DNA from: a virus
Taxonomy: Duplodnaviria > Caudoviricetes
DNA length: 60,893 nt
Virus record (IMG/VR): IMGVR_UViG_3300035704_000009
Coordinates: 1 to 60,893 of that record
Direction: 5' to 3' (one strand)
In this document: in pieces, positions 234 through 13,737 of the stretch
Layout: each line of letters starts with the position of its first letter
Position numbering within the stretch: the stretch's first letter is position 1
Translations under genes and position numbers: made by a program
The notes under the pieces: model-generated
Seen by the model: only the letters and a program-made list of their open reading frames with translations
What the model was told of the DNA's origin: nothing
Database searches by the model: none

Positions 234-373
234 CGAAGCACATCTCGCTGCGTGTGCCGGACGAGTTGCTAGCGCGGCTTCAGGCCGCTGCTGGGCGGGA
301 TCGGCGCTCGCTGAACAGCGAGGTTTTGTGGCTGCTGGAGCGCGGGCTAGATCAGGACGAGGCTGGCGAGTGA
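230..373 (+). CDS. Arc-like ribbon-helix-helix DNA-binding protein
   Basis: MTKHISLRVPDELLARLQAAAGRDRRSLNSEVLWLLERGL has the Arc signature (LRxP...RSLNSE). GTGA overlap with tnpB. Confidence 0.85.
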   Translation: MTKHISLRVPDELLARLQAAAGRDRRSLNSEVLWLLERGLDQDEAGE

Positions 374-1572
374 GCCGGTTCCGCCTCTGCCCGACGCCTG
401 CTCAGGAGGCGATCCTCCGAGAGCACTGCGCGCATGCCCGGTTCGTGTGGAACCTGTGCGTCGAGCAGCAGACGTGGTGGCGCCCGGGCAGGGGCCCCGT
501 ACCCGGCTGGGCGGAGCGAAGCCGGCAGCTCACCGAGGCGAGAGCGGCCGAGCCGTGGCTTGCTGCCGGGAGCGCCATGGTGCAGCAGCAAGCACTGCGG
601 GACTACGGCCAGAGCATGGACATGTTCTATGGCGGTTCGTGCGGCAAGCCGTCATGGAGAAAGGCCAAGCGCAACGAGGGCTTCCGTATCGTGGGCGCAC
701 GCGGAAGCGTGCGGCACTGCTGCTGGGACGTCCGCCGTCTCTCGCGCCATGTCGGCGAGGTCCGTATCCCGAAGGTCGGGTGGGTCCGGTTCCGCTGGAG
801 CCGTGCCGTTCCGGATGCGAGGTCCTACCGGATCACGATGGATCGCGCTGGCCGCTGGCATGTCGCGTTCGCTGCGATCCCAAGCCCTGTCCCGGGTCCC
901 GGAACCGGGGAAGTGGTCGGCGTAGACCGTGGCGTGACTATAAGTGCGGCATTGTCCACGGGAGAAATGCTGACCGCGCCGCGCCTGAGTCCCGCACGAC
1001 AGCGACGGCATATCCGGCTTCAGCGCAGACTGGAGCACGCGAAGCGCGGCTCCAACAGCCGAGCCAAAATCCGTCTGCGCCTCGCAAGATTGCGAACCCG
1101 CGATCGTTGCGCCCGCAGAGACTGGGCCGAGAAGACGAGCACGGACATCGCCCGGCGGTTCGACCTGATCCGGATCGAGGATCTGCATGTTGAAGACATG
1201 ACCAGGAAGTCGGCACCCAGGCCCGACCCTGTTCGGCCAGGGGCCTTTCTCTCAAATCGCGCCAGCGCCAGGGCGGGACTCAACCGTGAGATCCGCGCCA
1301 GCGGCTGGGGCTTGCTCGCGCAACGGCTGGAAGAGAAGGCACCTGGCCGAGTTGAGAAGATCAACCCCGCCTACACGTCACAGACCTGCAATGCCTGCGG
1401 ACACTGCGAACCCGGGAACCGCGAGAGCCAAGCGTTCCTGTGTAAGCACTGCGGGCACACGGATCATGCTGACGTGAATGCGGCTAAGAACATCGCGGCA
1501 GGGCATGCCGTGACTGCGCGGGGAGGCTTCCGGGTTGCCGGGCCGTTGAACCGTGAACCTCGGGCTGCCTAG
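370..1572 (+). CDS. tnpB: TnpB RNA-guided nuclease #1 (IS200/IS605 family), RuvC triad intact
   Basis: N-terminal RFRLCPT..Q..L..H..ARFVWN; RuvC-I VGVDRG, RuvC-II IRIEDL, zinc finger CNACGH/CKHCGH, RuvC-III ADVNAAKNI. Start placed at GTG 370. Confidence 0.95.
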   Translation: MSRFRLCPTPAQEAILREHCAHARFVWNLCVEQQTWWRPGRGPVPGWAERSRQLTEARAAEPWLAAGSAMVQQQALRDYGQSMDMFYGGSCGKPSWRKAKRNEGFRIVGARGSVRHCCWDVRRLSRHVGEVRIPKVGWVRFRWSRAVPDARSYRITMDRAGRWHVAFAAIPSPVPGPGTGEVVGVDRGVTISAALSTGEMLTAPRLSPARQRRHIRLQRRLEHAKRGSNSRAKIRLRLARLRTRDRCARRDWAEKTSTDIARRFDLIRIEDLHVEDMTRKSAPRPDPVRPGAFLSNRASARAGLNREIRASGWGLLAQRLEEKAPGRVEKINPAYTSQTCNACGHCEPGNRESQAFLCKHCGHTDHADVNAAKNIAAGHAVTARGGFRVAGPLNREPRAA

Positions 1573-4009: not shown

Positions 4010-5187
4010 GCTGCCGCCTTCTGGTGCATCGCCGCAGCCCGCCTGGCCAGCGCTTCGGCCTGGGCGGGCTTCATGCCCTTGGCGATCAGCTTCTTGTAGA
4101 CGGCCTGGGCGTAGGGGGACAGGCCAGACGGACCGCCGCTGCCGGCTGGCTTCCCGCTTCCCATGGTGGTCACCCGGGGGCCGTCAGAGGATGAGGCATT
4201 CGACGTGACCGGGAGCGACCCGGCGAGGTCCACGGCCTTCCCGTCGTCGTTGCTCGCGGCCACGCCCATCTGCTGGGCGGGTACCATCGCGGTGCCGGAC
4301 TTCGAGCCAGCGGCGAGGCGGTTGTGCACGGCGATCAGCCCGGCCAGCGCACCCTGCTGCGAACCTGACGCGGGGGCCTTGACTCCCGAGGCGTGGGTGC
4401 CCTGGTAGCCGCGTCCCTTCGCGGCCAGGGTGCCGACCTTCATGCCGGTGCTCTTGTGCTGCACGGTGATGGTGCCGGGGCCGGAGCGGCTCATCTGCAC
4501 GTCGGCGGCACCGCGGACCTTCGGCATCCTGCGGGCTGCGGCCATCTCGATCACCTTCCCGTGTTCTGCGGCCAGGCGCGTGGTGGAGGCGCTCGCGAGC
4601 GATGCGCGCTGCGCCCGGGCGACCAGTGCCCGCCCGGCCGGCGTGCCGATGTCGGCTTTGGCGACGGCTGCGGCGCGGCCTTCCCGGGTGGACAGATCCG
4701 GTGCACTGGGGTGCGTGTGGTCAAGGTCGCCGCGCATCCGGTGCTGCTCGGCGTGGCCAGCCTGCAACTGGGCGATCGACGGGCTCTTGGGGCCGACCCG
4801 CCGGCCGCCAGCGGGAACCCCGCTGTGATGCTCGGTCATGTGCTGGACCAGCTGACCCTTGGTGCCCTCGAAGACCCAGCCGTGGCTGTAGCCCTTCGGG
4901 CCGGTCAGCTCGACGGCCGGGCCGTCGTTCGCTGCCTGGAATGCCCAGGTGCCCTTCACGCCCGGCGCGTTCGTGGCCTTGAGCTCCTTGGCCCGCTTGC
5001 GGATCAGCGCGGCGAGGGCCGGGCGCTTGGAGGCGGGAGCGCGGCCGACCGAGCGGATCGCGCGCTTGAGGTAGTCCACGTTGGGGATCGGGAAACTCGG
5101 CGGCGAGCCGGGCGCAGCGGGCAGCGCCTGTCCCATGGCCGCGAGCTTCCTGCGGCCTGCGGCGCGCTGCGGTGGCGGTGTCTTCAC
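4006..5187 (-). CDS. Multi-module basic head/core protein
   Basis: Start re-assigned to GTG 5187 (GGAGG RBS); modules FPIPNVDYLKRAIRSVGRA and GPKGYSHGW; ATGA-coupled to protease. Confidence 0.7.
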   Translation of the reverse strand: MKTPPPQRAAGRRKLAAMGQALPAAPGSPPSFPIPNVDYLKRAIRSVGRAPASKRPALAALIRKRAKELKATNAPGVKGTWAFQAANDGPAVELTGPKGYSHGWVFEGTKGQLVQHMTEHHSGVPAGGRRVGPKSPSIAQLQAGHAEQHRMRGDLDHTHPSAPDLSTREGRAAAVAKADIGTPAGRALVARAQRASLASASTTRLAAEHGKVIEMAAARRMPKVRGAADVQMSRSGPGTITVQHKSTGMKVGTLAAKGRGYQGTHASGVKAPASGSQQGALAGLIAVHNRLAAGSKSGTAMVPAQQMGVAASNDDGKAVDLAGSLPVTSNASSSDGPRVTTMGSGKPAGSGGPSGLSPYAQAVYKKLIAKGMKPAQAEALARRAAAMHQKAAA

Positions 5188-5220: not shown

Positions 5221-5487
5221 ATGCGGGAACGTCAGCGCCTCATGGTCAGCAGGCAGCACGGAGTCACTGCGCACACCGAGATCATTGATGATGACGCCGG
5301 CTTCGCGCAGCGGGCACGTGAGCTGAAAGACTGCGTGCCACCCGGCTTTGGTCCCGTCACGGGCCGGTTCATCGCTGTCACCTGCAACGGCTGCGGCGCT
5401 TCGGAGCGCCTGGACTTTGACCAGCCACAACTGCCCGGCAACTGGATCACGCGCGATTCCGGAGAGTTCTGTCCTGCCTGCCAGTGA
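5221..5487 (+). CDS. Small antisense leaderless gene, CxxC...CPxC zinc-binding protein
   Basis: TATCAT at 5208-5213, 7 nt before ATG; motifs CNGC and CPAC. Confidence 0.6.
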   Translation: MRERQRLMVSRQHGVTAHTEIIDDDAGFAQRARELKDCVPPGFGPVTGRFIAVTCNGCGASERLDFDQPQLPGNWITRDSGEFCPACQ

Positions 5488-5497
5488 AGACCGGGGG

Positions 5498-5593
5498 TTA
5501 GGACGCCACTGCCAGCCGGTCACCCCGCGCCCAGGAGTATCCGGGCGGTGGAAGGGTCGTAGCCCGCACCTGCGGTCTGCGCTCACCCATCGC
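5498..5593 (-). pseudogene. Displaced ancestral 3' end of the 7050-8621 gene; its start supplies the TnpB #2 guide
   Basis: Translates AMGERRPQVRATTLPPPGYSWARGDRLAVAS*, homologous to the resident C-terminus AMDAPQRAAMRSVILPPPGFEWTTADRLAVAAL*. Confidence 0.85.
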
Positions 5594-5720
5594 TTGACAT
5601 CCTCGCCAACCCTAAGGACGGCGATTCCTGGTGTGCTTATGCAGCACTTTCCAGAGGTTCACGGACGCTCGGTGTCGCCCCTCCGGCATGCCCTGCCGCG
5701 ATGTTGATACTGGCGTTGAG
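5574..5720 (-). ncRNA. Predicted omegaRNA of TnpB #2; guide about 5593-5574 (GCGATGGGTGAGCGCAGACC)
   Basis: Minus-strand right end GGAATCGCCGTCCTTAGGGTTGGCGAGGATGTCAA ending at 5594; 5' boundary approximate. Confidence 0.7.
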
Positions 5721-6878
5721 ATCCGCGTTGCAGGTGAAGCCACAGTTGGTGCAGACAAACTCGGCTTGGCTCTTGCGCGAGTTCTTGTCGATCCAACCGC
5801 AGCCGCTGCAACGCAGGCTGGTGTAGGCGGCCCTGACCTTCTCCACCCGGCCCGGCGCTTTGTCCTCGGTGCGCCGGGCCAGCATTCCCCAGCCCTGCGC
5901 AAGGATGGCCCGGGTTAGCCCGGATTTCTGCGCAACGTTCTTGCCTGGCCGCTGAATGGTGCCCTTGGCGCTGGCCGTCATGTTCACGATCCGCAGATCT
6001 TCAAAGCGGATCACATCAAATCGGCGGGCCAGTCCCGTGGAAGTCTTCTCTACCCAGTCCTTGCGGATGTCAGCGCTGCGGGCATGCAGCCGGCCAAGCT
6101 TGGCGTACTCGGCGGCCTTTGCCGGGGAATCCTTCGGCGCTCGCGCCGCACGCTGCTCGGCTTTCCGCAGCGCGGCTTCCTGCTGCACCGGGAGGCCGGG
6201 GCAGTGCAGGGTCTCGCCCGTTGATAGTGCGGCAGTGATTGCTATACCCCGGTCGATGCCTACGACCTCGCCCGTGCCGGGGCCTGGGATCGGTGCCGGA
6301 ATAACAGCGAAGCCCACGTGCCAGCGCCCGGACCGGTCCAGGGTTACCCGGAAGGACTTGCACTCAGGGACGGTGCGGGACCAGCGGAACCGGACCCAGC
6401 CGACCTTGGGGATCTTCACCTGGCCCCATCGGCGGTTGAGGCGCCGGGCATCCCAACTACAGCCCCCGCCGGGACCGCGCCTGCCCGTAATCCGGAAGCC
6501 TTCGTTCCGGTACTTCTTCCGGCGGCCGGGGTAGCCGTGCGTGCCAGCCAGAAAGTACCGGAAGGACTGCTCGAAATCCCGCAACGCCTGCTGCTGGACG
6601 TTCACCGAGCCTGCGGCTAGCCACTCAAACTCGGCACGCGCTTCGGTCAGCATCCGGCACTGTTCCATGAGTCCCGGTAGCGGGACGGTCGGACGCCGTT
6701 TCTGGTGAATGCAGGTGTTCCCGTCCCGATCCGTGCGACGGGAGGCGTTGCCGTAGGTTTCCAGTCGGCCGAAGTCATGCAGACTGGCGGCTAGGTTCCA
6801 TATGTACCGCGCATGCGCACAGTGCTGCCGCAGGATTGCCTCCTGCGGCACTGTCGGATACAGCCGGTACCTGGACAT
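5637..6878 (-). CDS. tnpB: TnpB RNA-guided nuclease #2, RuvC triad intact
   Basis: RYRLYPT; VGIDRG; IRFEDL; CSGCG/CTNCG; ADLNASINI. Confidence 0.95.
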   Translation of the reverse strand: MSRYRLYPTVPQEAILRQHCAHARYIWNLAASLHDFGRLETYGNASRRTDRDGNTCIHQKRRPTVPLPGLMEQCRMLTEARAEFEWLAAGSVNVQQQALRDFEQSFRYFLAGTHGYPGRRKKYRNEGFRITGRRGPGGGCSWDARRLNRRWGQVKIPKVGWVRFRWSRTVPECKSFRVTLDRSGRWHVGFAVIPAPIPGPGTGEVVGIDRGIAITAALSTGETLHCPGLPVQQEAALRKAEQRAARAPKDSPAKAAEYAKLGRLHARSADIRKDWVEKTSTGLARRFDVIRFEDLRIVNMTASAKGTIQRPGKNVAQKSGLTRAILAQGWGMLARRTEDKAPGRVEKVRAAYTSLRCSGCGWIDKNSRKSQAEFVCTNCGFTCNADLNASINIAAGHAGGATPSVREPLESAA

Positions 6879-6909
6879 GGGACCATTCTAGCGCAATTAT
6901 GGTCCCATG
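6876..6909. promoter_or_regulatory. Divergent promoter/operator between tnpB #2 and arc
   Basis: Perfect 11-bp inverted repeat CATGGGACCAT / ATGGTCCCATG containing both start codons; minus-strand TAGAAT 6 nt before the tnpB ATG (leaderless). Confidence 0.75.
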
Positions 6910-7053
6910 AAGCACGTCAACCTGCGTGTCCCCGACGACATCCACGCCGTGCTTGTGGCTGCCGCTGAGGCCGAACGCCGCTCGCTCAACAGCATGGTCA
7001 TCATCATGATCGAAGAAGCACTCCAACGCAGAGCGGATCACGCACAGGACTAG
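6907..7053 (+). CDS. Arc-like ribbon-helix-helix protein
   Basis: Not in ORF track: MKHVNLRVPDDIHAVLVAAAEAERRSLNSMVIIMIEEALQRRADHAQD; clear paralog of 230-373. Confidence 0.85.
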   Translation: MKHVNLRVPDDIHAVLVAAAEAERRSLNSMVIIMIEEALQRRADHAQD

Positions 7054-8621
7054 AGCGCAGCCACGGCGAGACGGTCTGCGGTGGTCCATTCAAAGCCAGG
7101 CGGGGGCAGTATGACTGATCGCATCGCCGCCCGTTGTGGGGCATCCATCGCGTTCACCGCCCGTGCGGCTTCCTCTGGCGTGTCGTGGCGGGTCAGGGAG
7201 GTCCGGGCGTGGAACTGGCCCCCCTCGCGCTTGCCGGGCGGGACACGCTCGGTGAGGGCCTCAGCGAACGCCATCTCGAGGAACCGTGTGCCGTCATCGC
7301 CGCCAGCCGCGAGCTTGATCGCCGCTGCCTGCTGGTCCAGCCCGGCCGCGTGGGCTTTCAGGGTCACCACCCGGGCCCGCAGCGTCTTGCGGGTAGCGCG
7401 CATCTGGGAGATCGTGGCCGTCTTCTTCGCCGCGGTCGCCGTGGTGCTCGCCGCGGTCGTGGTGGCCGCAGTCGTGGTGGCCGTGGTGCCCGCTGCGGTG
7501 GTCGTGGTGGTAGCAGCGGCAGGAGCGGTAGCGGCAGCCTTGACCGCAGTGGACGCCTTGGCGGTCGCGGACTTCTTGTTCGCCGCCGCTGCCTTCTGTG
7601 CCGCCGCCGCCTTGACTGCCGAGTGGATCGACGCGGTGAGGCTCGCGATCCGGGCGTTGATCGCCTTCGCCTTCGCCCGGTCGCCGGCGGCCTGCTTCAG
7701 GAGCCCGGCGCGCTTCTGGAGGGCCTGCTGGCGGGTCGCGGGCTTCGGGACTGGCTTGCCGGTCATCTTCGGCGAGGTCTTGGCGGGCTGCTTGGCTTTG
7801 GCGGGCTGCTTCGCTTTGGCGGGGGTCTTGGCCTTAGCCGGGGTCTTCGCGGCGGTCTTCGGTGGCGCGGCCTTGCTGGTGGCAGCCTTGCCGGCCGGGG
7901 CTTTCGCGGCAGCCTTCTTCGGGGCCGCCTTCTTTGCCGTGCTGGCTTTCGCGGTTTTTGCCGTGCTGGCCTTCCCGGTGCTCCCCGAGGAACTGGAGCC
8001 GCTGCCCTTCTTGGCGAACTGGCCGCCCGCGGAACTCCCGGCCGCGACATGCGGGTGCAGGGAGTCGGACGCGCCGCCGGTCGGCTGCTGCTTCCCGCCG
8101 CCGCCCTTGCCGCTGCTCTTCGCCCTCGGGCCGGTCGCACCCGTGGCGATGTTCACCTGCGCGGCGGTGGCCGGCTTCGCCGTCGCGGCTGGCTTGGCGC
8201 TCCTGGTGCCGCCTCCGCCACCGGGTGCCACCAGTGCCAGCTCCAGCCAGGAGCGGGCCATGGCCTCGCCGAGGTCACTGGACAGGTCCACGCCGTCACC
8301 GCCCTGGTTTGAGTGAGCATGAGCGCGGGCCTTCGCGGCTTCCCATTCGGCGAGAGCACGGGTGGCTGCGGCCTGGACATCCGGGTGGACGCGCTTGCCG
8401 TGCCCGGCGTCACCGGCCGCCCAGCGGCGGATTATGCCTACCGCCATCTCGATGGCAGTGCTCTCGTCCTTGGCGCTGCCGCTCCGCTGGAGAGCGTGCG
8501 CGACGTTCTGTATGTAGGCGGGCAACTGGAGGCCCTTGACCCGGAACAGGCCAGGGCCGGACGGGCTGCCGAACGGGTGATGCACCGTGGAGGCGGTCGC
8601 CGTCTGCGCGGTCAGGTCCAT
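7050..8621 (-). CDS. Ala/Lys/Thr-rich putative core/internal head protein
   Basis: Start ATG 8621 (TGATG coupling); LPAYIQNVAHAL domain, GGQF motifs, PAKAK repeats, poly-Thr tract. Confidence 0.7.
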   Translation of the reverse strand: MDLTAQTATASTVHHPFGSPSGPGLFRVKGLQLPAYIQNVAHALQRSGSAKDESTAIEMAVGIIRRWAAGDAGHGKRVHPDVQAAATRALAEWEAAKARAHAHSNQGGDGVDLSSDLGEAMARSWLELALVAPGGGGGTRSAKPAATAKPATAAQVNIATGATGPRAKSSGKGGGGKQQPTGGASDSLHPHVAAGSSAGGQFAKKGSGSSSSGSTGKASTAKTAKASTAKKAAPKKAAAKAPAGKAATSKAAPPKTAAKTPAKAKTPAKAKQPAKAKQPAKTSPKMTGKPVPKPATRQQALQKRAGLLKQAAGDRAKAKAINARIASLTASIHSAVKAAAAQKAAAANKKSATAKASTAVKAAATAPAAATTTTTAAGTTATTTAATTTAASTTATAAKKTATISQMRATRKTLRARVVTLKAHAAGLDQQAAAIKLAAGGDDGTRFLEMAFAEALTERVPPGKREGGQFHARTSLTRHDTPEEAARAVNAMDAPQRAAMRSVILPPPGFEWTTADRLAVAAL

Positions 8622-9055
8622 CAGCCCGCCTGCCTGCTGTGCACCTGGTCCCACGGGCCGTTCGCCGTCTTCGCGGTGCCCACCCATGCCGTCACCGGCT
8701 GGCCGAGCGCCTGGCAGGCCAGGGCGCGGGTGTGACCGTCAACCAGGCGCAGGAGCTTCGTGCCGGGCCTGCGTACCGCGACCACGGGCTTGCGGGTGCC
8801 CGAGCGGATCCGGGCCACGAACGCGGCGATCTTCGGCTTGTCCTTCGCCGCGAGTGCCCAGTTCGGGTCGGCAGCGCTGCGGTCGATCTGGCCGAGGGGC
8901 ACCAGCACCGGGCCCGGTGTCCAGGTCAGGTCGTCCACCCAGGCAAGGGCGCCTGGCGGGTAGTCGCGGGCCAGCTGGAGCTTCACTTCCTGCGCCGTGG
9001 TCAGCTTCCCCGGCGTGGCCAGCGCGGCGTGCGGATCCGAGACGCCTGCGGCCAT
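8621..9055 (-). CDS. ParB/Sulfiredoxin-like N-terminal domain protein
   Basis: PVVAV...LVDGHTRALA motif. Confidence 0.75.
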   Translation of the reverse strand: MAAGVSDPHAALATPGKLTTAQEVKLQLARDYPPGALAWVDDLTWTPGPVLVPLGQIDRSAADPNWALAAKDKPKIAAFVARIRSGTRKPVVAVRRPGTKLLRLVDGHTRALACQALGQPVTAWVGTAKTANGPWDQVHSRQAG

Positions 9056-9738: not shown

Positions 9739-10383
9739 CTACGGCAGCACAGGAGCGCCAGGGTGCGGCGGGCCCGGGAAACAGCGGCAGTTGGGGTGCG
9801 TGGTGCCGGGGTAGCCGATCTTCGGCGGACGGTCCGCGTAAAAGGACTTCCCGTCCGCTGTCCGGCACTCCGGCGTACATCTCGGGTCGATCACGGCATT
9901 CCACGAGAGCAACGGCCCGTGCATGGCCGCCGCGCCGTCAACCGCTGCCGCTGCGGCCATCCTCTGCTGCCCGGCGGCCACGTGTGCATTGAACCAGCGC
10001 CGCTCATCCCCGAGTGCGTCCAGTGCCGCCTGCGTGACCGGCTGGCCCTGGGAGCGTGCCGCGACGACGGCCTGCTGCACACGCTTCGCCGCCGCCAGGA
10101 AGAAGCTCGCCCTCCTGGTGAGATTGGCCCTCACGGCCCATCGCGTGGCGGGGCCGGTCCCTTCCATCACCTCGTGCGGCCAGGAGGCTACGAGGGACGC
10201 CACGGCGGCAAGAGCGGCACCTGAGATGCCAGCGGCCTTGAACGGGGCGCGGAGGGCCGCCGTGAGAGCCTTCGCGGTGTAGTACGCGGCAAGCGCAGCG
10301 ATTATCAGCTCAATGAGCTGATAATCGGCAGGTCGTTGCTGGGGCGGAACGGCCTGCTGCTGAGGTGCCGCCTGTACTGGCAA
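9739..10383 (-). CDS. MuF-like (SPP1 gp7) minor head protein
   Basis: C-terminal WNAVIDPRCTPEC...HPNCRC; GGAGG RBS with TTG start. Confidence 0.85.
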   Translation of the reverse strand: MPVQAAPQQQAVPPQQRPADYQLIELIIAALAAYYTAKALTAALRAPFKAAGISGAALAAVASLVASWPHEVMEGTGPATRWAVRANLTRRASFFLAAAKRVQQAVVAARSQGQPVTQAALDALGDERRWFNAHVAAGQQRMAAAAAVDGAAAMHGPLLSWNAVIDPRCTPECRTADGKSFYADRPPKIGYPGTTHPNCRCFPGPPHPGAPVLP

Positions 10384-10395
10384 ACAGGCACCTCC

Positions 10396-10520
10396 GAATG
10401 AGAGCCCCGTTCAAGGTGACTCCGCCGTCTAGGGGACAGCTTCTCAGGCGGCTTCCGCTGCCTGAAGGGCCAGCCCGGCCCTGAGAATGTTGATTGCCGC
10501 GTTCACGTCGGCGTGGGCCT
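10396..10520 (-). ncRNA. Predicted omegaRNA of TnpB #3; guide about 10415-10396 (CTTGAACGGGGCTCTCATTC)
   Basis: Minus-strand right end GAAGCTGTCCCCTAGACGGCGGAGTCAC ending at 10416; 5' boundary approximate. Confidence 0.6.
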
Positions 10521-11679
10521 CGTGCCCGCACCCGAGACAGCAAAAAGCCCCCCCATCGCGATTCTCCTCGGCGATATGCCCGCACCGGGCGCACCGCTGC
10601 GAGGTGAAGGCGGGGTTCACTGCGATGATCATCCGGGCAGCTTCTTCCGCTTTCTCGGCGAGGACTCGCAGGAACACCCCCCATCCCGCGTCGAGAATCG
10701 ATCTGTTAAGCCCCGATTTGGCCGCCGCACCGTTCGGCTCCCACGAGCCGTCTTCCGCCGGACGCGGCCTCGGGCGGCGGGTCATGTTCGTGACTTGGAG
10801 TGCCTCATGCGCTACAACGTCGTTCTCGCGGACGAGGCGGAGTGCGGTCTTATGGGCGTGGTCCAAGCGCTGTCGGCGGATCTTGGTATGCAGACGGGAA
10901 ACCTTCATCGCAGCGACGCGGTGTTTGCGCGTCCGATCTTGTGCCCTGCGCTGAGGGAATCCCGCTAGGGACTGCTGTGCCGCCGCAAGTTTGTCTGCCG
11001 TTGCTGCGCCGTACCTTGGGTTGGGGACGTGCTTCCCGGTCGAGGTAGACAGGAAGTGCGTCACGCCCATATCGATGCCAACCACCGCGCCCGTGGCCGG
11101 GAGCGGCTCGGCGGGAACGTCGTCGCACGCCAGGATCACGTACCAGCGATTGCCCTCGCGCTTGGCGGTGATGGTCTTCACGCGCCCCTTCACGGTCCGG
11201 TGCTGGTGGACCCGGACGTGGCCGATGCCGAGGAAGCGGACGCGCGTCACGGTTGGGTGCGGGACAGAATCCCAGCAGGCACCGGCCTTTACAGCGGCCC
11301 ACTCCAGCGAATCGAACCGGCCTCGGCTCTTGAATCGTGGATACCCGGATCGCTCTCCGGCCTTTATGCGGCGGAAGAACGCCGCAAATGCCCAGTCAAG
11401 ACGGCGGATGGCGGCGCGCTCACAGGCGAAGGCCCATCGGCCGACACCGTTTGGGTCGGCCAGGCGGATCTCCTGAAGCTGAGCATCCTGGCTGTAGAAG
11501 GTGACCTGGCGATGGCCCATCCGCCACGCCTCCCGCCGCTCCTCAAGGGCGGCGTTGTACAACTGCCTCGTGTCCTCCAGGCACGCCTCAAGTGCAGTGA
11601 CCTGCTTAGAGGTCGGCCGCAGGAGGAACTTGTATGCTCGGAACATCTGCACCGGGTGTTGGTAGTCGGTGTGGGTCAC
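10444..11679 (-). CDS. tnpB: TnpB RNA-guided nuclease #3, RuvC triad intact (true start may be ATG 11646)
   Basis: RAYKFLLRPT..Q; LYNAALEER; YPRFKS; VGIDMG; VAHEAL; CARCGH/CLGCGH; ADVNAAINI. More distant from #1 and #2 than they are from each other. Confidence 0.95.
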   Translation of the reverse strand: MTHTDYQHPVQMFRAYKFLLRPTSKQVTALEACLEDTRQLYNAALEERREAWRMGHRQVTFYSQDAQLQEIRLADPNGVGRWAFACERAAIRRLDWAFAAFFRRIKAGERSGYPRFKSRGRFDSLEWAAVKAGACWDSVPHPTVTRVRFLGIGHVRVHQHRTVKGRVKTITAKREGNRWYVILACDDVPAEPLPATGAVVGIDMGVTHFLSTSTGKHVPNPRYGAATADKLAAAQQSLAGFPQRRAQDRTRKHRVAAMKVSRLHTKIRRQRLDHAHKTALRLVRENDVVAHEALQVTNMTRRPRPRPAEDGSWEPNGAAAKSGLNRSILDAGWGVFLRVLAEKAEEAARMIIAVNPAFTSQRCARCGHIAEENRDGGAFCCLGCGHEAHADVNAAINILRAGLALQAAEAA

Positions 11680-11913: not shown

Positions 11914-12201
11914 ATGACCACGGCCACGCCGCTTGAAGATCCGGCTTACCAGCCCCGGTACCCACCCGCTGGCGGGCTGCCGCCGGACGTCGTGGCCAAG
12001 TGGGGCCCGCGCAGCCAGGTCCGGTGGTTCGACCGCTATCGCGGGCAACTGCGGCGCGCGCCGTCTGCCTTCTGGGACCGCTTCTACTGCACCACGACCG
12101 CGCATCGCGGGAACTGCTGCACCAGTTGCGAGAGCGACTGGCTCATGGGCTACGCGGAAGACATGGAAAGGTGCTGCTGCCGGGCCTACCCGGAGGAATA
12201 G
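11914..12201 (+). CDS. Antisense leaderless Cys-rich hypothetical protein
   Basis: TAGCGT at 11901-11906, 7 nt before ATG; C..H..CCxxC...CCC. Confidence 0.6.
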   Translation: MTTATPLEDPAYQPRYPPAGGLPPDVVAKWGPRSQVRWFDRYRGQLRRAPSAFWDRFYCTTTAHRGNCCTSCESDWLMGYAEDMERCCCRAYPEE

Positions 12202-12204
12202 CAC

Positions 12205-13737
12205 CTAGGCCTTCGGGACACCCTGGATAGGCACGCTGAACGGCTCGTTGATGTCCTCCGGCAGCGGTGCCTTCGACCCGCGCACCAGAGCCTGCTGCGC
12301 GACCTTCGCCGCCGCGTTCACCCCGCCGGCGAGGTGGCCGAGCTGCGCCGCTGCCTTCGGCGGCATCCCCGGCGGTGCCTGCGCGGTGGCCTGCGCCTCG
12401 CGGTCCTTCGCGCCCTGCTGCACGATCGCCGCCACCGCGTCGACGTCCAGGTCCAGCACCGTCGCCAGCCGTTCGGTGATCAGGTCCAGGATCGCGGGCG
12501 GCACCTGCAGGGATGGCGCGACGGCGAGGGACTGGAACAAGCCCACCAGCGACGCCTGGCTCTCATCGGTCAGGGCGCCGAACTTGAACGTGGGGAAGCT
12601 CGCGCCCGGGCCGAAGTTCAGCGTCACCAGGGGGGCGATGACGTCGTGGGTGATCGTCTCGGCGATCTCCTGGCTGATGGCCTGCCGGGACTTGAGGAAG
12701 AACGCGCTCTGGTCCTGGGACAGCGCCAGCGAGCCGCGGCCGAGAGAGGCGAGGGAGGCGAGGCCGGTGAACCCGGCCAGGACGCTCCCCGTCTGCCACG
12801 TCTCGAGGAAGCTGAGGGCGTCGGCGAACTGCCCGGCACCCTTGCCGTCGCTGGCCAGGACCTCGAAGGTCTTGGCCCCGGCCGGGTCGCGGGCGAAGCC
12901 CACCACGCCGGAGGACCGCAGCGAGGCGATGTCGTCAGCCTTCGCGTTGGCCTCGCGCTGGTCCTGGCCGTACACGATGACCTTGGGGAGGCTCTGGGAT
13001 TCCAGGAACTGATACCACAAAAAAATTAGCTTGGTCTTCGTGCGGTACGCCCAGTGGCACAGTTCCAACTCGGACGTGCCGGTCAGCGGCTGGCGGTGCT
13101 TCCCGTTGATGTGGATCAGCGAACGGATACGGCTCACATCCACGTAACCGGGCAGTTTGCTCTGCTTCTGCTGGGCGAGTTGGGCACCCCACAACCAGGT
13201 TTGCTGGCGGAACCCGGTGATCGCGCCGTTCTTCGGGTCGCGCTTCAGTTCGCAGGTCGCGGCGGGGCGGAACGCCAGCTTGTCGTAAACGATCTTGCCG
13301 TCATCCCGGATCGTGAAGACTTTTTCATGGAACGATTTGCGGTAGATCTGGGCACCCGTTACCTGGCCGACCACTTCCGACATGGGCGTCTTCATGCCGC
13401 CCGAGGTGTGCGGGTCCATCAGCACCGAGTTGCAGAACTCCGCCTCGCCCTTGTCGCCCTTCGCCGGCTCGATCGCGCGGGCCGCCTGCCGGATGGGCAG
13501 GGTCAGGACGGCTTCCAGGGCAGCGGCTTGTCCATCCCTCTCGATCATGACCTGGAAGTCCCGGGAAGTGACCTGGCCATAGTCGAACACCGAGCCATCG
13601 GTGCCGAACAGGCCGAACATGCGGTTGCCCAGAAGATCGAACTCGGACCCGATCTCCGCGCCGAGCAGTTGCTTCCGTGTCGCTGGCTTCAGGTCGGGGA
13701 AGGCGACGATCCGGGCGGTCTGCGGGTCAGGAGCCAC
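12205..13737 (-). CDS. Portal protein (Mu gp29/DUF935-like)
   Basis: 510 aa, between terminase and MuF; GSLALSQDQ...IAETITHDVIAPLVTLNFG...PTFKF pattern. Confidence 0.85.
   Translation of the reverse strand: MAPDPQTARIVAFPDLKPATRKQLLGAEIGSEFDLLGNRMFGLFGTDGSVFDYGQVTSRDFQVMIERDGQAAALEAVLTLPIRQAARAIEPAKGDKGEAEFCNSVLMDPHTSGGMKTPMSEVVGQVTGAQIYRKSFHEKVFTIRDDGKIVYDKLAFRPAATCELKRDPKNGAITGFRQQTWLWGAQLAQQKQSKLPGYVDVSRIRSLIHINGKHRQPLTGTSELELCHWAYRTKTKLIFLWYQFLESQSLPKVIVYGQDQREANAKADDIASLRSSGVVGFARDPAGAKTFEVLASDGKGAGQFADALSFLETWQTGSVLAGFTGLASLASLGRGSLALSQDQSAFFLKSRQAISQEIAETITHDVIAPLVTLNFGPGASFPTFKFGALTDESQASLVGLFQSLAVAPSLQVPPAILDLITERLATVLDLDVDAVAAIVQQGAKDREAQATAQAPPGMPPKAAAQLGHLAGGVNAAAKVAQQALVRGSKAPLPEDINEPFSVPIQGVPKA

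Follow-up and report, generated by a model that had tools for sequence, protein, structure and literature searches.

The homing concept for TnpB nucleases, in which the guide is taken from the DNA flanking the element, has been set out in several papers (PMC8612924; PMC10690162; 10.1101/2023.03.14.532601; available parts of each), and co-infecting phages appear among the targets in Table 1 of a review (PMC13565253, in the part available). According to the accessible parts of this literature, TnpB elements stay harmless in either of two ways, by an intergenic position or by splicing from the transcript as an IStron. IStrons, which join a group I intron to an IS605 or IS607 TnpB, render an intragenic insertion harmless (excerpts of PMC4227781 and PMC10690162). 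Prophage e14 in the icd gene of Escherichia coli supplies a working 3′ end and leaves the pseudogene icdC at its far side (excerpt of PMC13626634). In the intronless homing of T-even phages, free-standing homing endonuclease genes cause the allele of a relative to be cut, sequence differences in the adjacent gene protect the carrier, and the flanks are co-converted (PMC13565253, excerpt). Here, a tnpB cassette in the virus record IMGVR_UViG_3300035704_000009 was analyzed. The window was the whole IMG/VR viral entry, a linear stretch of 60,893 bp with about 70% G+C and an estimated completeness of 55%. The cassette lies inside the end of a gene of the head-morphogenesis region, hereafter gene A. 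The reading that we favor, with moderate confidence, is that it carries a substitute for the gene end, uses the displaced original end as its guide and acts as a homing block.

In minus-strand order, the direction in which gene A, tnpB and the displaced tail are read, the locus consisted of gene A (8687-7050), an arc gene on the opposite strand, tnpB, a putative omega-RNA scaffold running to 5594 and an orphan tail of gene A. The first-pass annotation had placed gene A at 7050-8621; by the longest open reading frame (ORF) it begins at 8687 and encodes 545 residues. The gene was intact, with a C-terminal module typical of its family, and the protein ended in ...AVNAMDAPQRAAMRSVILPPPGFEWTTADRLAVAAL. 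The resident tail, presumed to be the substitute (7151-7050, minus strand), comprised 33 codons and a stop and read AMDAPQRAAMRSVILPPPGFEWTTADRLAVAAL, with the peptide SVILPPPGFEWTTADR lying within the C-terminus of gene A. The orphan tail (5593-5498, minus strand) comprised 31 codons and a stop and read AMGERRPQVRATTLPPPGYSWARGDRLAVAS. That the orphan is homologous to the end of gene A had been proposed from inspection, and it was borne out by tblastx of the 300 nt after tnpB versus the 1.5 kb upstream (E 5.3e-8, 52% identity over 27 residues). In a duplicate test, BLOSUM62 scoring compared the 105 nt after the right end with the sequence to the left of tnpB and took shuffled sequences as controls; the score was 82, against a null mean of 38.5 and a null maximum of 46 (z=12). 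Both tails began with GCGATGG and then diverged, again as first described. The 20-nt guide comparison gave 12/20 matches, the first 7 nt being common to both tails and the first mismatch falling at guide position 8.

Which of the two tails is the original was addressed with uninterrupted alleles. P0011, a metagenomic protein of 244 residues from a 2.5-kb contig, was identical to gene A at 29 of 32 residues in MRATRKTLRARV... and at 47 of 47 residues from RFLEMAF to AVNAM. After AVNAM it ran on uninterrupted as GEAQRAQVRATTLPPPGFEWARGDRLAVA. Its alignment to the orphan contained one gap and 24 identical residues out of 29, whereas the resident tail reached only 18 of 29. The drop of identity between gene A and P0011 fell exactly at the junction (Fisher p 6e-6). 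The expectation that empty alleles would resemble the orphan end thus held at the protein level. The family of the gene-A C-terminal module consisted of 10 proteins from a near-length search, 8 from a shorter-length search and the loci L026, L027 and L092, and shared the end pattern ...RHDTPE..AVNAM..LPPPGFxW..DRL... Over the 22-residue tail core, the orphan was nearer than the resident tail in 10 of 11 comparisons with family members, and one comparison was tied. The uninterrupted alleles L026, L027 and L092 read GTGAAC GCC/GCG ATG GA... at the site, and the metagenome scan yielded at least two loci. Among relatives for which DNA was available, L026 was the closest, with 78-80% identity upstream. 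Over 23 codons it showed a small difference between the two tails, with 67% nucleotide identity to the orphan and 57% to the resident tail.

Codon usage was compared with 9 reference genes (4372 codons; 4075 windows of 33 codons). The 33 codons before the junction stood at the 49th percentile of typicality and the resident tail at the 1.3rd. The G+C content of third codon positions was 0.64 in the resident tail versus 0.86 upstream (Fisher p 1.5e-4). The rare codons noticed earlier in the resident tail were indeed rare in the reference genes, with relative frequencies of 0.066 for CCA, 0.074 for CAA, 0.042 for CGA, 0.042 for TCA, 0.017 for ATA and 0.036 for TTT. Taken together, P0011, the family comparison and the codon break support the proposal that the cassette lies inside the gene end and supplies a replacement C-terminus with the original displaced; as far as sequence comparison can tell, the orphan is the original end and the resident tail the substitute.

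The two tails were compared codon-wise, a MAFFT alignment of their DNA being poor. Among 25 alignable codons, 15 residues were identical, and 9 of 13 identical residues other than Met and Trp used different codons. The Nei-Gojobori proportions of synonymous (pS) and nonsynonymous (pN) differences were 0.81 and 0.25. Since synonymous sites were saturated and the protein was conserved, the tails must have diverged as working gene ends in separate lineages; judged from this pattern, they are alleles of separate lineages that diverged under coding constraint. The QRA motif, present in every family member, was absent from the orphan tail, which had RRPQ instead with a net loss of 3 nt; this would fit decay after displacement.

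The tnpB gene of the cassette (5637-6878, minus strand) was a fully open frame of 413 codons with OrfB_IS605, zinc-ribbon and helix-turn-helix domains (PF07282, 4.1e-15; PF01385, 5e-12; PF12323, 6.4e-7). It matched TnpB chains in the PDB with E values of 1.5e-25 to 7e-20. The motifs VGIDRGI, RFEDL and NADLNA aligned with the corresponding RuvC motifs, which we take to be the Asp-Glu-Asp catalytic triad, and the zinc motif was kept as two CxxC pairs (CxxC...CxxC). The putative omega-RNA scaffold and right end (5594-5745, minus strand; 5′ limit approximate) ended in GAGGATGTCAA. Its boundary came from the loci L022 and L024, which contained one and the same related element in two different places (99.5% identity across 1515 nt) and parted immediately after ...GAGGATGTCAA (TCAA). 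This divergence point makes 5594 the final base of the right end, so that the orphan starts at the first flanking base. The sequence ...GGAATCGCCGTCCTTAGGGTTGGCGAGGATGTCAA ended at 5594, 43 bases after the tnpB stop, and GCGATGGGTGAGCGCAGACC... followed directly. The presumed guide, GCGATGGGTGAGCGCAGACC (5574-5593, minus strand), is assigned by this position directly 3′ of the right end, with an assumed length of 16-20 nt. The same terminal motif after a G+C hairpin ended many actinomycete and viral relatives. An RNAalifold consensus of 31 right-end regions contained 19 pairs, 11 of them with compensatory changes. In the present scaffold, 5 of 6 pairs of one helix were preserved through 3 double (compensatory) changes; of the 7 pairs in the terminal hairpin, 6 remained, one of them as G-U. 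The fold of the single sequence was unremarkable (z = -1.1). A candidate deletion of the right-end hairpin was rejected: the pattern GGGTTGG...GAGGATGTCAA had matched the 3′ arm of the hairpin here and another segment in the relatives, and the 31-sequence alignment corrected this.

On the other side, tnpB was divergent from arc (6907-7053, plus strand), which encodes an Arc-like ribbon-helix-helix protein of 48 residues (PF03869, 2.9e-6). The same divergent pair was found in L022, L023 and L024. A 28-bp inverted repeat between the two genes, GGGACCAT...ATGGTCCC (6879-6906), resembled that of L022 and L024 and is likely a promoter or operator; a scan for promoters and terminators added little, with a single promoter-like match (6872-6900, plus strand). 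Arc proteins of IS605-family elements are reported to repress the promoter of their element (bioRxiv 10.64898/2026.09.24.754181, available part). The present arc resembles them: it is a small ribbon-helix-helix gene next to tnpB, the likely promoter region between the two contains an inverted repeat, and the Arc-like product is a putative repressor. Beyond arc no left end was seen: the region resembled none of 6 related left ends, and perfect hairpin stems of at least 7 pairs were absent from 6850-7500. The TAG stop of gene A and the stop of arc shared the palindrome CTAG, and because the two stops overlap there is no room for a left end.

No match to the Y1 transposase TnpA (PF01797) was found in the record (estimated 55% complete). 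Many members of the IS200/IS605 family are TnpB-only. The cassette resembled IS200/IS605 TnpB-omega-RNA elements, both those homing as ISDra2 does and the TnpB-only IS1341-like ones, in its RuvC fold and zinc ribbon, in a putative scaffold overlapping the 3′ end of tnpB, in a hairpin right end ending in TCAA and in a presumed guide in the flank. Unlike them, it had no left end and no TnpA in the record, was inserted within coding sequence, carried a substitute copy of the displaced gene end, and implied GAAC instead of TCAC or TCAT as its target-adjacent motif (TAM). It appears to be an IS200/IS605-type TnpB-omega-RNA module that has lost its left end and carries a putative Arc repressor gene.

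The presumed TAM is TGAAC (7152-7156, minus strand), the five bases before the insertion point, within the codons V-N of AVNAM. The first-pass annotation had given it at 7156-7152, and it was located there, directly before the junction. In relatives of the element, the left end contains a hairpin, and its first base directly follows TCAC, TCAT or CCAC. Among the 20 relative pairs shown, 8 gave clean boundaries (TCAC in 3, TCAT in 4 and CCAC in 1), 1 was mixed and 11 did not resolve; the left boundaries of L023 and L025 were read singly, not from pairs. A genome scan for TnpB returned 80 relatives at 50-58% identity and none closer, and TnpB matches in isolated phages did not exceed 38% identity. 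Some 25 low-G+C viral contigs of IMG/VR (among L028-L091) had a related right end and nearly the same flank (TTnTTCCTCTGTGAATAGTGAAATCTGTTTT...), which points to one conserved insertion site probably common to many phages.

The following account of how the block arose, uses its guide, cuts, homes and escapes its own nuclease is inferred. The inserted block would be 7151-5594 and comprise the diverged but working gene-end copy that completes the protein, arc, tnpB and the omega-RNA scaffold, with the original gene end pushed to the far side, directly after the scaffold. As in other members of the family, the scaffold transcript would run into this flank, so that the guide would be the first 16-20 nt of the orphan. 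Its target would be the orphan-type sequence beside the TAM in a cassette-free gene (...TGAAC followed by GCGATGGGTGAG...; TGAAC plus GCGATGGGTGAGCGC...), and cassette-free DNA of the P0011 type would be expected to read ...GTGAAC GCGATGGG... into the orphan-type end. Guide-loaded TnpB would cut the cassette-free alleles of co-infecting relatives, and recombinational repair from the carrier genome would copy the whole block 7151-5594 into the cut relative. The carrier would be immune to self-cutting because its substitute end departs from the guide at position 8; the seed requirement of such guides is the basis for expecting a mismatch from that position to prevent cutting. Given the divergence of the tails, recombination between them is expected to be rare. 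The sharp junction could be maintained if the flanks were homogenized with those of each recipient and selection against self-cutting preserved the differences at the start of the spare tail. Most likely the block has a single origin, in which the gene end of a second allele was illegitimately joined to arc and the left end was deleted.

Each of the known systems shares part of this scheme. The layout by which the gene is mended is the same as in e14 and icd. However, e14 uses site-specific recombination by an integrase at att sites of a bacterial chromosome, whereas the cassette has a phage host, no integrase match and a shared core of only 7 nt (neither the serine recombinase PF00239 nor the tyrosine integrase PF00589 had a match in the record). 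Moreover, unlike in e14, the displaced end sits where the RNA guide would be templated. IStrons solve the same problem, but the cassette would mend the gene by a spare DNA end and not by RNA splicing. Searching the whole record against Rfam at the gathering threshold gave no match, neither to an omega-RNA scaffold nor to a group I intron; with no ribozyme, the cassette is not an IStron. With the intronless homing of T-even phages it would share self-protection by sequence difference. Unlike there, recognition would be by an RNA guide, and the protecting differences would lie in a duplicated gene end carried by the element itself.

Several observations weigh against the substitute-end reading. 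P0011 is known as a protein only, extends 36 residues past the position of the orphan stop and has an extra internal module. The uninterrupted alleles with DNA would be poor targets, L026 matching the guide at 14/20 positions and L027 at about 10/20 by hand count. Scans of IMG/VR gave no matching DNA allele (all 8 matches to a VNAMGER-coding pattern were chance matches), no match to a P0011-type allele pattern and no second carrier, the orphan tail being absent from all 34 sequences that matched the right end followed by GCNATGG. The implied TAM GAAC differs from the TCAC or TCAT of relatives at 2 of 4 positions; since those relatives are only 50-58% identical, the TnpB here may recognize a different TAM. 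In the duplicate test, none of the remaining 84 of 85 right-end junctions, viral and bacterial, exceeded z=2.4 for a flanking duplicate, leaving the present cassette as the single clear instance. The codon usage of the orphan tail was likewise atypical (1.5th percentile, p 0.019); with both tails atypical, composition alone cannot tell which is native. Finally, the record is a metagenome assembly. This last point would agree with a chimera in which the assembly joined two strain variants, as would the estimated 55% completeness of the contig. Such a chimera is nevertheless improbable to a high degree: the tnpB genes of the record are only 33-52% identical and lack long repeats that could cause a false join, the right end meets the orphan precisely where the canonical boundary lies, and no repeat at the left join explains a mis-join.

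The same evidence was considered for explanations that accept the assembly. The locus could be an inert recombination scar, a possibility that we regard as unlikely though worth serious consideration: a TnpB element would have transposed into the gene end, the phage would have been rescued by an illegitimate crossover with an intact allele, and the cassette would be a passenger without cutting or homing, with the orphan beside the scaffold by history only. The missing left end and the non-canonical join with overlapping CTAG stops fit such a history, and so do the lack of a transposase in the record and of a second carrier in IMG/VR, the decay of the orphan within guide positions 13-20 relative to P0011, and cassette #3 of the same phage (described below), where a comparable flanking duplicate on the other side fits rescue by recombination. 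On the other hand, the TnpB catalytic and zinc motifs are intact in an open frame of 413 residues, the scaffold helices are maintained through compensatory changes, and the arc-tnpB control region is conserved. The sharp break of P0011 identity at the junction, together with divergence of the substitute from guide position 8, is also the pattern predicted by selection against self-cutting. Alternatively, the resident tail could be native and the orphan could have arrived with the cassette from a donor phage. While the unusual codons of the orphan would suit this origin, P0011, identical upstream, has the orphan-type tail, the resident tail is the outlier in 10 of 11 family comparisons, and the compositional break lies at its start; we consider it very unlikely. 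It is extremely improbable that the gene end was duplicated in tandem where it stood and that the copies then drifted apart. Such a duplication would account for two direct copies on one strand, but the contrast of pS 0.81 with pN 0.25 places most of the divergence under coding selection in both copies, and P0011 matches one copy only.

If the substitute-end reading is correct, the locus would represent a third way for a TnpB element to stay harmless, in which the gene is mended at the DNA level by the element's own diverged end and the original is kept as guide template. An active element of this kind could invade essential phage genes while being self-immune and hard to delete. It would offer a natural system for studying RNA-guided homing between co-infecting phages and the co-evolution of guide and self-immunity, and orphan gene fragments beside phage tnpB genes could mark insertion sites and guides. 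More tentatively, and with the balance of our judgment on the side of doubt, it may belong to an unrecognized class of transposase-independent, RNA-guided gene-drive cassettes of phages that carry a recoded spare copy of the segment they displace. The three tnpB cassettes within 12 kb of the head module, the duplicate at cassette #3 and the locus L021 would then be related cases. Were this so, such cassettes would home into essential structural genes without cost, with the carrier protected and loss by recombination blocked, as a natural counterpart of the recoded homology donors of genome editing. Literature searches listed no paper on a TnpB cassette that brings a substitute gene end, which is not proof that none has been published.

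L021 (IMGVR_UViG_3300025949_000001) contained the closest TnpB relative, 63% identical, and was without a left end. Its upstream membrane-protein gene ended in ...ATYLTRTTSTLLADGGGR, with the stop overlapping the tnpB start (GTGA). After the right end the sequence read YLTATTNTIVPSGATP to a stop, identical to the tail of the upstream gene at 7 of 16 residues and with the same 51 nt to the stop (hand count; 2940-2990 and 4184-4236). In the unbiased BLOSUM62 test this flanking duplicate was not significant (z=0.7), and a homologue of the upstream gene in the L023 record did not cover the tail. For these two reasons L021 is counted as suggestive only, and it may be a second spare-tail cassette.

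The record contained three tnpB genes, all in the head-region stretch (328-1572, plus strand; 5637-6878 and 10444-11679, minus strand). Cassette #3, with tnpB at 10444-11679, was flanked by two diverged minus-strand copies, 11913-11791 and 10408-10262 (tblastx E 2.9e-4). These corresponded to the upstream region and the first 40 or so codons of a MuF/minor-head-like gene (9739-10383, minus strand), and both ended at CTCAC. The left copy lacked 22 nt, was out of frame and was preceded by GGTCAT. Judged from its arrangement, cassette #3 would fit a canonical insertion at TCAC with later rescue, or alternatively a block with a spare copy; a single relative was found for its right end. Within the coding start of the MuF-like gene lay a perfect 27-nt palindrome, GATTATCAGCTCATTGAGCTGATAATC (10300-10326), A+T-rich in a genome of 70% G+C and absent from the left duplicate copy. 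Cassette #1 (191-1612) had a co-directional Arc-like gene (from 230) and tnpB (to 1572), with the right end GGGGAGGATGCCAA ending at 1612. Its left side began after ...GCTCAT, a TCAT-type site at about 201, and its flank covered the stop region of a convergent minus-strand gene.

Gene A itself had no match in Pfam or PHROG, its module had no tblastn match in isolated phages, and a near search of the phage collection gave no match. Its family consisted of shuffled modules with ANDGxAVELA-like linkers between them. In L009 (5734-7944), the N-terminal domain of gene A and the entire gene B, the next gene of the record (about 5187-4006), formed one open frame of about 640 residues. The gene-A homologue of L014 (4318-6510) contained an intein-like insert with Hint and endonuclease motifs, and that of L093 (509-900; Ga0066790_10082279) broke after ...RVPPGRREGGQ and was followed by an HNH endonuclease gene. 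The head-morphogenesis region comprised the first 14 kb of the record on the minus strand and included a portal gene (12205-13737, minus strand; phrog_113, 1e-28) and the MuF-like gene; further genes there had no family matches. A small plus-strand ORF (5242-5487) with a CxxC...CxxC end (...CNGCGASERLDFDQPQLPGNWITRDSGEFCPACQ) was convergent with the orphan tail, their stops lying about 10 nt apart, and another small Cys-rich plus-strand ORF (about 11915-12201) adjoined cassette #3.

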